Positions 17,196-23,144 of a stretch of 64,000 nt of DNA are shown here, in pieces. The stretch comes from an uncultured beta proteobacterium (GTDB lineage: Bacteria > Pseudomonadota > Gammaproteobacteria > Burkholderiales > Burkholderiaceae_C). The stretch lies in the NCBI GenBank assembly GCA_963783785.1, contig CAWAOQ010000010.1, positions 139,316-203,315 on the forward strand, written 5' to 3'. A model generated the notes under the pieces. That model worked only from the letters and a program-made list of their open reading frames with translations. It was not told the origin of the DNA and did not search any database. Position 1 is the stretch's first letter. Each line of letters opens with the position of its first letter. Position numbers and translations under genes: made by a program.

Positions 17196-18374
17196 ATGGC
17201 CAACACGGAGAGTGAAAAGAATTATGTCATCCGGGTTCACGACGACCCGACGGCGGTCGACGCCAGCGCCTGGAACGCACTGCTGGATGTTCAAGACTCA
17301 CCGACGCCGTTCATGCGTCACGAGTACCTGCTCGGGTTGCACCGCTCACGAAGCGCCGTGGCCGAAACTGGCTGGGAACCCGCGTGGATCACGATCGAAT
17401 GCCAAGGGGCGCTGCACGGCGCCGCTGCGCTGTACCTGAAAGCCCACTCCTACGGCGAGTACGTGTTCGACTGGGCCTGGGCCGATGCCTACCAGCGCAA
17501 CGGCCTGGACTACTACCCCAAGCTGCTCGGCGCGGTGCCGTTCACACCGGTGCCGGGATCGCGCCTGCTGGCGGTCAACGACGCGGCCCGCGATCTGTTG
17601 CTGCAAACCATCCTGGCACTCGCTCGCCAGCAGCGCCTGTCGTCGGCTCACCTGTTGTTCATGTCGGCAGCCGACCGCGCTGCGTGCGAGCGGGCGGGCT
17701 GGCTGCTGCGCGAGGGCGTGCAATTCCATTGGCAGAACCGTGAAGCCACCCCCTACGCCGACTTCGATGACTTCCTGCATAGCCTTCAGCGCGACAAGCG
17801 CAGGAAGATCGCGCAAGAGCGGCGGCGCGTGGTCGAGGCCGGCGTTTGCTACGAAGTGGTCGAAGGCGAGCGGATCGACGCCGCGCTGTGGGACTTCTTC
17901 TACCACTGCTACACCCTCACCTACCGCGCCCATCATTCGACGCCGTACCTGACACGGGCCTTCTTCGCCGAGATGGCGCAGGCAATGCCCGCGCACTGGC
18001 TGATGGTCGTAGCGACCCGTCGAGGAGAGCGCATCGCCGCATCGCTGATCGCGCGCGACCCGTCGCGCCGTGTCGCGTACGGCCGCTACTGGGGCGCGAT
18101 CGAGTACGTGCCCTGCCTGCACTTCGACGCCTGCTACTACCAGCCACTGAACTGGTGCATCGCCAACGGCTATCTGCGGTTCGAAGGCGGCGCACAGGGC
18201 GAACACAAGATGGCCCGCGGCCTGTTGCCGGTCAAGACCCTGTCGGCGCACTGGTTGGCCGACCGCAGGTTCGCGTCGGCAGTGGCCGACTTTCTGGCAC
18301 GCGAGGGCGCCGGTGTCGAAGCCTATGTGGACGAACTCAACGAGCGCAACCCTTTCAAGGCTGCGCCGCCTTGA
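17196..18374 (+). CDS. GNAT-fold protein of the DUF482/FemAB-like family
   Basis: 392-aa ORF: AWNALLDVQDSPTPFMRHEYLLGLHRS...YGEYVFDWAWADAY...YYPKLLGAVPFTPVPG... I recognise this as a conserved proteobacterial family of unknown function. Confidence 0.75.
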   Translation: MANTESEKNYVIRVHDDPTAVDASAWNALLDVQDSPTPFMRHEYLLGLHRSRSAVAETGWEPAWITIECQGALHGAAALYLKAHSYGEYVFDWAWADAYQRNGLDYYPKLLGAVPFTPVPGSRLLAVNDAARDLLLQTILALARQQRLSSAHLLFMSAADRAACERAGWLLREGVQFHWQNREATPYADFDDFLHSLQRDKRRKIAQERRRVVEAGVCYEVVEGERIDAALWDFFYHCYTLTYRAHHSTPYLTRAFFAEMAQAMPAHWLMVVATRRGERIAASLIARDPSRRVAYGRYWGAIEYVPCLHFDACYYQPLNWCIANGYLRFEGGAQGEHKMARGLLPVKTLSAHWLADRRFASAVADFLAREGAGVEAYVDELNERNPFKAAPP

Positions 18375-18377
18375 GGT

Positions 18378-18914
18378 TCACTTCCTGGCGCCCGGCCACG
18401 CGGCCATGCCGTTGACGATTTCCTGCCTCGCGGCATCGGGCCCCTCCCAGCCGACCACCTTGACCCACTTGTTGGGCTCGAGATCCTTGTAGTGCTCGAA
18501 GAAGTGCTGGATCGCGTTCAGGCGCATCGGATTCACATCGGCAGGCTTCTGCCAGTGGTTGTACATCGGAAGGATCTTGCTCGTTGGCACAGCCAGCACC
18601 TTGGCGTCACCGCCGGCCTCGTCTGCCATCTTCAGGATGCCGATCGGCCGGCAAGTCACCACCACGCCAGGGGTCAGCGCGAATGGCGTGATCACCAGCA
18701 CGTCGACCGGGTCGCCGTCGTCGGACAGCGTCTGCGGCACATAGCCGTAGTTGCATGGGTAGTGCATCGCCGTGGTCATGAAGCGGTCGACGAACATGGC
18801 GCCGCTGTCCTTGTCGACCTCGTACTTGATCGGGTCGGCGTTCATCGGAATCTCGATGATCACGTTGAACTCGTCGGGCGCCTTGGCGCCGGGCGTCACG
18901 TTGTGCAGGCTCAT
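18378..18914 (-). CDS. ppa: inorganic pyrophosphatase (soluble, family I)
   Basis: 178-aa ORF: [30 protein letters not shown]...[19 protein letters not shown]. Confidence 0.96.
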
Positions 18915-19129
18915 GGGGACTCGATCGAAGGCAGGGATGACCCGAAGATTCTACGGACGCCCCTTGCACGGCCCTGACCGGCATCGGCCCCCCGCCGAAC
19001 GGGGGAAAAACACGGGCCAGTCGAGCCTGCGGCATCGCGTAGCATTCGAGGTTGAGTCCGGCGGCCGCTGCCGCCGGGGCAGAAAAACCACCCTTCCCAG
19101 GGCCTGAATCAACAAGAGGAGCCTCCTTC

Positions 19130-21604
19130 ATGTCGACCACCATGGCGCTCTATGTCGCGCTTGCCTGCGGCCTGGCTGCAGTGTTGTACGGCTTCGTCCA
19201 GCGCAGCTGGATCCTGAAGCAGGACGCGGGCAATGCCCGCATGCAGGAAATCGCCGGCGCCATTCAGCAGGGTGCTGCTGCCTACCTGGCGCGACAGTAC
19301 AAGACCATCGCCATGGTGGGCGTGGTACTCACGATCTTGATCGCGTTCTTTCTCGATGGCACCACGGCCTCGGGCTTCGTGCTCGGCGCCGTGCTGTCGG
19401 GCGCATGCGGCTTCATCGGCATGAACGTGTCGGTGCGCGCCAACGTGCGCACCGCGCAGGCGGCCACCAAGGGGATCGGCCCGGCGCTGGATGTCGCCTT
19501 CAAGGGCGGCGCGATCACCGGCATGCTGGTCGTCGGCCTCGGGCTGTTGGGCGTCGGCCTCTTCTTCTGGTTCACGACCATGAACGGCCAGATGACTCCC
19601 GACAAGAGCCTGGCTACGGTATTGAAGCCGATGCTCGGCTTTGCCTTCGGCGCTTCGCTGATCTCGATCTTCGCGCGTCTGGGTGGTGGCATCTTCACCA
19701 AGGGCGCCGACGTCGGCGCCGACCTGGTCGGCAAGGTCGAGGCCGGCATCCCGGAAGACGACCCGCGCAACCCGGCGGTGATTGCCGACAACGTCGGCGA
19801 CAACGTTGGTGACTGCGCCGGCATGGCTGCCGACCTGTTCGAGACCTACGCGGTGACTTTGATCGCGACCATGGCGCTCGGCGCGTTGGTCGTGACGGCC
19901 GCGCCGATGGCCGCCGTGATGTACCCGCTGGTGCTGGGCGGGGTGTCGATCATCGCGTCGATCATCGGCTGTGGCTTCGTGAAGGCCAGCCCTGGCATGA
20001 AGAACGTCATGCCGGCGCTGTACAAGGGCCTCGCCGTGGCCGGCGTGCTGTCGCTGATTGCCTTCTATTTCGTCACCGCTGCGGTGATGCCGGCCGACGC
20101 ACTCGGCGCCGGCACCCACATCAGGCTGTTCGGCGCCTGCGCCGTCGGTCTGGTGCTGACCGCCGCGATGGTCTGGATCACCGAGTACTACACCGGCACG
20201 CAGTTCAAGCCGGTCCAGCATATTGCGGCGGCATCGACCACCGGCCATGGCACCAACATCATCGCCGGCCTGGGCGTCTCGATGCGCTCGACGGCCTGGC
20301 CGGTTCTGTTCGTCTGCGTTGCGATCCTGGTCGCGTACAACCTGGCCGGTCTGTACGGCATCGCCGTGGCCGCTACTTCGATGCTGAGCATGGCCGGCAT
20401 CGTGGTGGCGCTCGACGCTTACGGTCCGATCACCGACAACGCCGGGGGCATCGCCGAGATGGCCGAGTTGCCCAAGAGCGTGCGTGACGTGACCGACCCG
20501 CTCGACGCGGTCGGCAACACGACCAAGGCCGTGACCAAGGGCTACGCCATCGGCTCGGCCGGCCTGGCTGCGCTGGTGCTGTTCGCTGACTACACGCACT
20601 CGCTCGAGAGCCGCGGCATCGTTGCGAGCTTCGATCTCAGCGATCCGAAGGTGATCGTCGGCCTGTTCATTGGTGGCCTGATCCCCTACCTGTTCGGCGC
20701 CATGGCAATGGAGGCCGTGGGCCGCGCTGCGGGCTCGGTGGTGGTCGAAGTGCGCCGCCAGTTCAAGGAGATCAAGGGCATCATGGAAGGCACCGCCAAG
20801 CCCGAGTACGGCACGGCGGTCGACATGCTGACCAAGGCCGCCATCAAGGAGATGATGATTCCCTCCTTGCTGCCGGTGATCGTGCCGGTGGTCGTGGGCC
20901 TGGCCCTCGGCCCCGCCGCACTCGGCGGCCTGCTGATGGGCACCATCGTGACCGGGCTGTTCGTGGCCATCTCGATGTGCACCGGCGGCGGCGCGTGGGA
21001 CAACGCCAAGAAGTACATCGAAGACGGTCACCACGGCGGCAAGGGCAGCGAAGCGCACAAGGCGGCAGTCACCGGCGACACGGTGGGCGACCCCTACAAG
21101 GACACCGCCGGCCCGGCCGTCAACCCGCTGATCAAGATCATCAACATCGTCGCGCTGCTGATCGTGCCGCTGCTGCCGGCCGGCACGACGGCGAAGGCCA
21201 CGGCCTCGCACTCAGCGCCGGCTGCTGCCGTCGCTACCGCGCCTGCATCGGTTGCCGCAGCGCCAGCGCCTGTGGTTGCGGCCGCACCGGCGGCGACGAC
21301 CACCGAGGCCAAGTTCCTGTTCGACAGCGGCAAGGCCGACCTGCCGGCCAACTCGGCCGACAGCATCGCCAAGCTGGCGGCTGCGGCCAAGCCCGGTGCC
21401 GGCAAGCTCGTGATCAGCGGTTTTCACGACACGACGGGTGACCCGGCGAAGAACGCCGAACTGGCCAAGGCACGCGCCTTCGCCGTGCGCGACGCGCTCA
21501 AGGCCGCCGGCGTCGCCGAAGATCGCATCGAACTGAAGAAGCCCGAGCAAGTCAACGCCGGCAGCGCCGACGAAGCACGTCGCGTCGAGGTCAGGCTGAT
21601 GTGA
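19130..21604 (+). CDS. hppA: membrane H+-translocating pyrophosphatase with a C-terminal OmpA-like domain
   Basis: ATG 19130 is preceded by AAGAGGA. Typical M-PPase motifs: [73 protein letters not shown]. The frame continues through the linker [43 protein letters not shown] into [10 protein letters not shown]...[29 protein letters not shown]...ARRVEVRL. Confidence 0.9.
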
Positions 21605-21632: not shown

Positions 21633-21660
21633 GGGCCGGCACTGACCGGCCCCTTTTTTT
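21633..21660 (+). terminator. intrinsic terminator after hppA
   Basis: Stem GGGCCGG/CCGGCCC with a 6-nt loop, followed by T7. Confidence 0.85.
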
Positions 21661-21688
21661 GTCCGCACCCGACGCGAAAGACACACCG

Positions 21689-23144
21689 ATGTCCGCCATC
21701 CGCCTGAATCCGCTCGATGCATCGTGGCTTTACACCGAATCGCGCGCGACGCCGATGCACGTGGGTGCGCTTCTGCCGTTCCGCCTGCCCGCTGGTTCAC
21801 CGAAGGATTTCGGCCGCCGCCTGATGGCCGACCTGAAGAAACATCAGAAGTTCGCCGCGCCGTGGAATCGTCGGCTGAAGTCCGGCCTGCTGAAGATGCC
21901 AGTGCACTACTGGGTCGAGGACGACGACATCGATCTCGAAGCGCATCTGCGCCATGCCGCACTGCCTCACCCCGGCGGCGAACGCGAACTCGGAGAGCTG
22001 ATTGCGCGGCTGCACAGCCAGCCGCTGGATCTGTCGCGGCCGCCGTGGGAATGCACCTTGATCGAAGGCCTGGACGACGATCGTTTCGCGTTCTTCGTCA
22101 AGATGCACCACTCGCTGATCGACGGCGTCAGTGGCATGAAGCTGCTGCAACGGGCGATGCCGGACGATCCCGAGAAGAGCCTCTCGGTGCTCCCGTTCTG
22201 GGCCATCGGCGCGGGCACTGCTCGCAAGAGTGCCAAGCCGCATCCGGAACGCGACACCCGCGCGGCTACCTTCAGCAACGCCGCAGCCGCAGCGATCGAT
22301 GCGCTGCGCGGGCAGGTCAGGACGGCACCTCAGCTGCTGCTGGCGTTTGCCAAGTTGCTGCGTACGAGCGGGCCGACCGACGAGTCGCTGCAAGTGCCGT
22401 TCGGTGCGCCGCCATCGATCCTCAATGGCCGCGTGCGCGCCAAGCGCCGCTTCGCCACGCAGCAGATCGCGATCGATCGCATGAAGGGGCTCGCTCAAAC
22501 GGCTGGCTGCACCCTCAATGACCTGGTGCTGGCCACCTGCGGCGGCGCAATTCGGCACTTCCTCGAGGACATCGGCGAGTTGCCGGAAAGATCGCTGACC
22601 GCGGGCATCCCGGTCTCCGTGCGCCCCAAGGACGATGAGAACGCCGGCAACGCGATCACATTCATCATCGCAACGCTGGGCACCGACATCGACGATCCGA
22701 TACAGCGTCTGGCGGCCATCCGCACCTCGGTGCAAAGCGCGAAGGCTCACGTCCAGAGCCTGCCGCGACAGGCGATGATGCAGTACACGATCGCGCTGAT
22801 GGCGCCGACGATCCTGACCCTGCTGACCGGTCTGGGCGGGCGCACGCGACCAATGTTCAACATCACCATCTCCAACGTGCCCGGGGCCGGACAAGCCGCT
22901 GTTCTTTCGCGGTGCCGAGATGTTGGGCACCTTTCCGGCCTCGATCGTCACCCACGGCCAGGCGCTCAACATCACCTGCCAGAGTTATGCCGGCATGATG
23001 GACTTCGGCTTCACCGGCTGCCACGCCAGCCTGCCGCACATGCAGCGCATCGCCGTCTACACCGGGGCGGCCTTTGACGAACTCGAGCGCCTGATCCTTC
23101 AACCAGCGAAAACGCCCCGCGCCCGACGCCGGGCGCGGGGTTGA
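21689..23144 (+). pseudogene. wax ester synthase/diacylglycerol acyltransferase (WS/DGAT), interrupted by a single-base insertion
   Basis: MSAIRLNPLDASWLYTESRATPMHVGALLPF and the catalytic motif HHSLIDGVSG lie in ORF 21659..23077. The C-terminus (FRGAEMLGTFPASIVTHGQALNITCQSYAGMMDFGF) lies in ORF 22920..23144. The junction is at the G run 22883-22886 (CCCGGGGCC). Confidence 0.85.

Follow-up and report, generated by a model that had tools for sequence, protein, structure and literature searches.

A predicted K+-independent H+-pyrophosphatase with a C-terminal OmpA-like, putatively peptidoglycan-binding domain in an uncultured Burkholderiaceae_C bacterium

Pyrophosphatases of the membrane-bound kind (M-PPases) form obligate homodimers with functional asymmetry and are described as 'single-domain' proteins (PMC10897367). 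A review has reported an M-PPase that carries an OmpA-like domain at its C-terminus in Paucibacter sp. KCTC 42545 (A0A0U2VTE8 / WP_058719013.1, 810 aa); the case was found by filtering UniProt for long M-PPases, was presented with an AlphaFold model and a HMMER match to OmpA, and was joined by relatives from Burkholderiales, Rubrivivax, Rhizobacter, Acidovorax, and Polaromonas (Table 2 and Figure S4 of PeerJ 2024;12:e17496, PMC11210485). The role of the OmpA-like domain, in the words of the review, 'remains to be elucidated' (PMC11210485). Here, we describe a gene of the same architecture, hppA-OmpA, in a 64,000-nt stretch of DNA (the window, to whose positions all coordinates refer) from an uncultured Burkholderiaceae_C bacterium (assembly GCA_963783785.1, contig CAWAOQ010000010.1). 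The fusion of pump and tail in this gene is virtually certain to be real, and the pump is probably tethered non-covalently to peptidoglycan by its OmpA-like tail.

The architecture is thus already known, and the window gene is a further member of a described family. The Paucibacter protein has the same plan, a predicted K+-insensitive H+-translocating pyrophosphatase (H+-PPase) with an OmpA-like domain of about 110 aa at its C-terminus, and likewise comes from the Burkholderiales; the window gene differs from it in belonging to another, uncultured lineage. The review compared the domain with the whole of Escherichia coli OmpA and called the likeness remote, whereas the tail is assigned here to a confident Pal/OmpA-C fold in which the motif residues are intact. 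An initial annotation, made from the letters of the window alone, had noted that no characterised pyrophosphatase with such an architecture was known. The statement stands as far as characterised enzymes are concerned, and in the literature library searched the PeerJ review was the sole paper to connect M-PPases with OmpA or peptidoglycan; the architecture itself had already been published as an in silico observation (PMC11210485) and is common in RefSeq genomes. What is added here is the evidence that the window copy is not an error, the subclass of the pump, a Pal-type fold with its motif residues, a disordered and variable linker, the apparent restriction to one clade, and the occurrence of the same tail on cytochromes and small anchors.

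The gene lies within a single open reading frame (ORF) that extends on the forward strand, counted from the upstream stop, from 19052 to 21604, and its likely start is the ATG at 19130, which is preceded by a Shine-Dalgarno-like sequence (Table 1). In translation, the frame passes the end of the last pump helix without a stop, enters a linker, and continues into a 99-aa domain that contains all of the motifs quoted in the initial annotation, ends in ARRVEVRLM, and is closed by the stop codon at 21602-21604. The earlier reading of the frame, of a pump running on into a 43-aa linker and a domain of about 99 aa, is therefore confirmed at the same coordinates by the ORF list and the translation, and the strong terminator that it placed after the gene is seen at 21633-21652 as an all-GC hairpin with a T-run (GGGCCGG-CACTGA-CCGGCCC, then the T-run). 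No second copy of the tail was found elsewhere in the 64-kb window.

The pump portion is matched by PF03030 over aa 16-678 (E 1.1e-274; 913.5 bits against a cut-off of 29.7; profile positions 2-645 of 645), and of the NCBIfam models the M-PPase entry NF001951 scores best, with 1190 bits (cut-off 859). In a phmmer comparison with the PDB, the 682-aa pump aligns over its full length to the enzymes of Vigna (4A01/5GPJ), Pyrobaculum (8B37), and Thermotoga (4AV3) with E-values of 1e-144 to 1e-151; the catalytic Asp and Lys motifs are intact and identical to those of the solved M-PPases, and the alignments stop at query residue 679-683, the end of the sixteenth transmembrane (TM) helix, TM16. The motif GNTTKAVT places Lys at 12.46 and Thr at 12.49, a combination (GNTTKAxT) that is the rule for K+-independent H+-PPases (PMC10897367); in the same region of the alignment, the K+-insensitive enzyme 8B37 reads GNTTKATTKG and the K+-dependent Vigna enzyme reads GNTTAAIGKG. 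By its signature motif the pump is predicted to be a K+-independent H+-PPase, and because this signature is present, the label 'sodium-translocating pyrophosphatase' under which these proteins appear in databases is probably wrong.

Several lines of evidence establish the junction between pump and tail. The window protein aligns to proteins from independent metagenomes with 96% identity and 100% coverage and without a change of frame, and aa 1-690 align at 97% identity to the best genome match, the metagenome-assembled genome (MAG) MFD04651.bin.2.75 (locus L001). With the last 210 aa as query, a protein search gave 8000 matches, and in all of the best 120 clusters examined (60-96% identity; query coverage 87-100%, mostly 100%) PF00691 occurs together with PF03030. 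Where the junctions of relatives were read, TM16 and the tail were conserved throughout, and the Ala/Pro-rich linker between them was variable. A genome scan with the tail profile (A1), in which each species was represented by one genome, revealed relatives of the tail in at least 537 species. Among the best 80 loci, which were examined individually, pump and tail share one frame in 46, with ORFs of 812-981 aa from the upstream stop, and two further loci are probably fused, one truncated at its 5′ end (L037) and one frameshifted (L057). The fused loci include those of the isolates Variovorax paradoxus NBRC 15149 (a complete chromosome), Ideonella sp. A 288, and Pseudorhodoferax Leaf265 and Leaf267, as well as MAGs assigned to Polaromonas, Rhodoferax, Rubrivivax, Methylibium, Paucibacter, Rhodocyclaceae, and Casimicrobiaceae. 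The fusion is accordingly conserved among orthologues, a point for which the initial annotation had proposed a survey.

The alternative is an artefact in which a 1-nt indel joined hppA to a separate downstream gene of the OmpA family. The initial annotation had cautioned that the assembly carries 1-nt insertions, and the caution is justified for the assembly at large: the next gene (21659-23144, +), a wax-ester synthase/diacylglycerol acyltransferase (WS/DGAT; PF03007 and a truncated PF06974), contains a frameshift that splits it, and near position 22883 the window reads GGGG where L001 reads GGG, the extra G probably being a homopolymer sequencing error. Frameshifts also break hppA-OmpA in some related long-read MAGs of the MFD series (L018, L019, L039, and L057), whereas the orthologues in isolates are intact; these breaks are likely errors of sequencing or assembly and would cause mis-annotation as split genes. 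The hppA-OmpA frame of the window is itself intact, with no stop or change of frame at the junction and a significant OmpA match; the window protein is colinear with its relatives across the junction; and the translation bears out the earlier remark that the linker contains neither a plausible start nor a signal peptide. Since the fusion is conserved across genomes, including isolate and complete ones, as well as in every one of the best protein clusters, the artefact is rejected and retains a negligible probability. For annotation this means that products of about 810-830 aa are real, and that there is no ground for splitting them or for marking them as fusions caused by a frameshift.

The assignment of the tail to the OmpA_C family, made in the initial annotation, is upheld both by profile and by predicted structure. 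PF00691 matches the tail with E 1.5e-12 and 48.2 bits in the context of the whole protein and with E 7e-14 and 52.4 bits when the tail is searched alone (gathering cut-off 27.2), so that the 824-aa product exceeds the cut-offs of both PF03030 and PF00691. In an alignment of 42 tails, F6, G39, D42, G45, N50, L53, A54, K55, R57, A58, G69, P80, R93, and V94 are invariant. The tail profile matches 54 OmpA-like PDB chains at E<=1e-3, the best being the periplasmic domain of PA0833 (PA0833-PD; 6JFW, E 2.8e-13), Capnocytophaga gingivalis OmpA, and YiaD, and in these three proteins the Asp and Arg of the G-x-T-D...N..LS..RA motif align with D42 (GFHD) and R57 (KARA) of the tail. The corresponding residues of Acinetobacter baumannii OmpA, Asp271 and Arg286, bind diaminopimelate (DAP), and both are conserved in PA0833 (PMC12108004, PMC5974059), which binds peptidoglycan in vitro (PMC5974059). 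An AlphaFold2 (AF2) model of the tail has a predicted local distance difference test score (pLDDT) of 87.5, a predicted template modelling score (pTM) of 0.80, and the order beta-alpha-beta-alpha-beta-beta. A Foldseek search with this model returned Pal (2HQS, the top match), OmpA-C, OprF-C, YfiB, TagL, and the DAP-peptide complex 3TD5; the probability was 1.0 and the TM-scores were about 0.8-0.88. When the last 210 aa were modelled as well, TM16 came out helical and the OmpA-like domain exceeded a pLDDT of 90. The models thus assign the tail, with confidence, to a Pal/OmpA-C fold in which the residues of the DAP-binding motif are kept.

Tethering to the wall gains support from the invariance of the peptidoglycan-motif residues and from the confident Pal-like model, and the tail likely binds peptidoglycan. 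A domain of this fold could instead bind a periplasmic or outer-membrane protein, or it could dimerise and so stabilise or regulate the M-PPase homodimer, for example through half-of-the-sites asymmetry. Pal binds TolB with the same face in the very structure that heads the Foldseek matches; PA0833 is dimeric in solution (PMC5974059); and the functional asymmetry of the obligate M-PPase homodimer (PMC10897367) would suit a regulatory role. The two DAP-contacting positions, together with N50 and R93, are nevertheless invariant over the 42 diverse tails, and we regard a tail that does not bind peptidoglycan as unlikely.

The linker between TM16 and the domain has a composition of A20 T7 P6 V4 S3 in the window gene. 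Across the 46 fused loci its length is 24-73 aa (median 44.5) and its sequence is poorly conserved, with 36% Ala, 13% Pro, 11% Val, and 9% Thr; in the AF2 model of the last 210 aa it lacks secondary structure and has a pLDDT of about 40-50. Mean identity over the fused loci is about 65% for the tail and about 86% for the pump, and the linker drifts in both length and sequence. Because the tail is conserved while the linker drifts, the two appear as a selected domain on a flexible tether. The linker would presumably be long enough to bridge the distance from the membrane to the wall, and a long, disordered tether of variable length suits a domain that reaches a distant layer and not one that packs on the pump, as the alternatives without peptidoglycan binding would have it. 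A linker that forms a seventeenth TM helix, which would leave the tail in the cytoplasm, was considered and rejected on account of its six prolines, its length variation, and its unstructured, low-pLDDT model.

In the solved M-PPase structures (4A01, 4AV3), the C-terminus after TM16 lies on the lumenal or periplasmic side, and the tail should therefore be periplasmic. The earlier statement that the topology is compatible with a periplasmic tail agrees with the alignment of the pump to these structures through TM16 and with a linker that is predicted to be non-helical. A second indication comes from proteins other than pumps. Among the best 80 loci of the genome scan, those without a pump carry the same tail subfamily, about 60-70% identical. 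In three of them it stands behind an Ala/Pro linker: one encodes a membrane-anchored cytochrome c (L008, 3152-4288; PF13442 and PF00691), another the reaction-centre tetrahaem cytochrome PufC (L070, 122-1900; PF02276, E 1.7e-139, and PF00691), and a third a secreted NHL-like protein with the same tail subfamily (L009, 3167-4294). The c-type cytochromes mature in the periplasm, and since the tail is fused to them, the module works there. By homology to the solved pumps and by these cytochrome fusions, the tail of the window protein is thus predicted to be periplasmic.

In about 27 of the 80 loci, the tail sits on a small protein of about 150-175 aa that crosses the membrane once; these loci come from Acidovorax, Hydrogenophaga, Polaromonas, Rhodoferax lacus, and Brachymonas (for example L075, 3761-4297; L045, 3770-4297; L044, 3743-4294; and L035, 3794-4291). 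These carriers have a conserved acidic N-terminal stretch (MSSxDDD..Q) and Lys or Arg after the TM helix. Their neighbours in Acidovorax and Hydrogenophaga, read by eye from translations, are look-alikes of ChaC and of pyridoxamine-phosphate oxidase and are uninformative. The presence of one module on unrelated carriers argues for a portable anchor and not for a regulator specific to the pyrophosphatase, and the tail subfamily looks like a portable C-terminal anchor module; cytochrome c, PufC, and the single-pass proteins likewise speak against the regulatory version of the alternatives set out above. Portability also bears on a further explanation, in which envelope architecture is the main selected function and an abundant inner-membrane protein serves as one carrier of a tie between inner membrane and wall that sets periplasmic spacing or envelope stability. 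Several inner-membrane carriers, a single-pass protein as the minimal anchor (Acidovorax, Hydrogenophaga, and Polaromonas), and linker lengths within a narrow range are in keeping with such a function, which overlaps with tethering of the pump in that both need peptidoglycan binding. How the single-pass carriers are oriented in the membrane is uncertain, and as the main selected function we consider this explanation improbable.

The fusion was also placed among M-PPases at large. An exhaustive HMMER search of 1.84 billion representatives yielded 23,437 relatives, and among the best 150 (50% clustering), PF00691 occurs only in two fragments, P0124 and P0143, which belong to the same clade as the window gene. 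The nearest full-length representatives (P0121-P0123) are 63-66% identical, measure 680-698 aa, and finish at TM16, and no OmpA domain was found in eight longer M-PPases that were scanned. In the sampled loci, the fused pumps share 72-97% identity with that of the window. Because neither the nearest full-length representatives nor the other long M-PPases scanned have an OmpA domain, the fusion seems to be limited to a single clade of Burkholderiales (as defined by GTDB). Four of the long proteins, P0126 (878 aa), P0140 (960 aa), P0201 (1001 aa), and P0166 (1016 aa), have long C-terminal or internal extensions without any Pfam match above threshold, that of P0126 giving a sub-threshold CarboxypepD_reg-like match, and the 'single-domain' label may understate how varied multi-domain M-PPases are.

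In the proposed mechanism, the last TM helix of a K+-independent H+-PPase would exit to the periplasm and continue as a flexible Ala/Pro-rich tether to the OmpA-like domain, which would bind the meso-DAP stem peptide non-covalently in the manner of Pal, OmpA-C, YiaD, and PA0833. The homodimeric pump would then be held to the sacculus by two flexible tethers. Such pinning would restrict lateral diffusion and keep the pump in the cytoplasmic membrane apposed to the wall, and each pump would double as a tie between inner membrane and wall. That immobilisation or localisation is the function for which the tail was selected is a suggestion to which we give slightly less than an even chance. A conserved peptidoglycan-binding tail on a pump would be a simple case in which the wall limits where an inner-membrane energy converter lies or how freely it moves, and the presence of this tail on periplasmic cytochromes points in that direction too.

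Several observations weigh against this reading. The PF00691 match covers model positions 1-77 of 98, which puts the domain at the short end of its family, and the NCBIfam models of the OmpA family all fall below their cut-offs for the tail, with YiaD, LptF, OmpA, TssL, and MotD matched weakly; such a compact domain, diverged from the curated models, would also fit a function other than peptidoglycan binding. Pal-type domains bind proteins such as TolB as well, and the ligand of the tail could be a protein. A Kyte-Doolittle scan, a crude measure, gives a borderline value of 1.5 for linker aa 698-719. The positive-inside rule, applied to the sequences of the single-pass carriers, would give their tail a cytoplasmic position, at odds with the periplasmic one in the other fusions. 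Finally, we know of no mechanical need of a proton pump for an anchor, unlike the case of MotB. Against this background, tethering of the pump to peptidoglycan by its tail is still the reading that we consider probable.

A broader and more speculative proposal is that the Ala/Pro linker and the OmpA-like domain form a clade-specific wall anchor that Burkholderiales have grafted repeatedly onto periplasm-facing parts of energy conversion (H+-PPase, cytochrome c, and tetrahaem cytochrome), with the sacculus as a scaffold that immobilises or organises bioenergetic complexes, in convergence with PsaB of Gloeobacter. We put this forward tentatively, as rather doubtful; if true, the cell wall would help to pattern the energy-transducing domains of the inner membrane.

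The surroundings of the gene in the window are of interest in their own right. Just upstream and divergent lies a gene for a soluble family I inorganic pyrophosphatase, ppa (18378-18914, −; PF00719, E 1.4e-57); the pairing of ppa with hppA was found again in 25 fused loci, and ppa and hppA-OmpA may have a common regulatory region. Adjoining ppa is a gene for a FemAB_like protein (17196-18374, +; PF04339, 'peptidoglycan biosynthesis/recognition', E 2.9e-136), which is kept upstream in several fused loci (L001-L003, L011, L028, L067, L071, and L072). The features of hppA-OmpA are listed in Table 1.

Table 1. Features of the hppA-OmpA gene and its signals, in window positions.
Feature	Position	Strand	Basis
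Shine-Dalgarno-like AGGAG	19117..19121	+	8 nt before ATG 19130, read from sequence
Complete hppA-OmpA fusion gene, 824 aa and stop	19130..21604	+	ORF list, translation, Pfam PF03030 and PF00691
K+-independent H+-translocating M-PPase domain (by signature), aa 1-682, to the end of TM16	19130..21175	+	PF03030, NF001951, PDB alignments, K12.46/T12.49
Ala/Pro/Thr-rich linker, 43 aa, predicted disordered	21176..21304	+	Composition, variability over fused loci, AF2
Compact OmpA-like (OmpA_C/Pal-type) domain, 99 aa, predicted peptidoglycan-binding	21305..21601	+	PF00691, PDB profile matches, AF2, Foldseek
Intrinsic terminator, 7-bp all-GC stem, 6-nt loop, T-run	21633..21662	+	Sequence; hairpin also in L001

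Set against the solved enzymes of Pyrobaculum aerophilum (8B37) and Vigna radiata (4A01), the window protein is alike over the whole length of the pump (E about 1e-150) and in the catalytic motifs, and it has the K12.46/T12.49 signature in common with 8B37; the solved enzymes finish no more than about 10-20 residues past TM16, whereas the window protein adds the linker and the OmpA-like domain. With Pal, OmpA-C, YiaD, and PA0833, the tail shares the fold (TM-score 0.8-0.88) and the G-x-x-D...N..L..RA motif, including the Asp and Arg that bind DAP. The carriers there are lipoproteins or barrels of the outer membrane, whereas the window domain hangs from an inner-membrane pump, and it is shorter than theirs between strand 3 and the final strand.

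A different kind of likeness is found in MotB/PomB, proteins of the TolR/ExbD type, and TssL/TagL, in which an inner-membrane protein is followed by a periplasmic linker and an OmpA-like peptidoglycan-binding domain that fixes a machine to the wall. These proteins have one TM helix, a partner in MotA, TolQ, or the type VI secretion system, and a clear mechanical role, whereas a pump of 16 TM helices implies no such partner. An identity as a stator of the MotB/PomB/TolR type was rejected, as the NCBIfam models MotD and MotB score 14-28 bits against cut-offs of 250-301 and the 16-TM architecture is wrong for it. A parallel in a carrier of another kind is PsaB of Gloeobacter violaceus (PDB 7F4V chain aB, 872 aa), which the tail profile matches at residues 756-832 in the PDB search. 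That protein is a core subunit of photosystem I (PSI) from another phylum and an independent fusion, and its extension is not resolved in the PSI structure. Like the window protein, it is a polytopic, energy-transducing protein of the cytoplasmic membrane with a periplasm-facing C-terminal OmpA-like domain, and a published hypothesis holds that its extension anchors PSI to peptidoglycan (PMC11565984).

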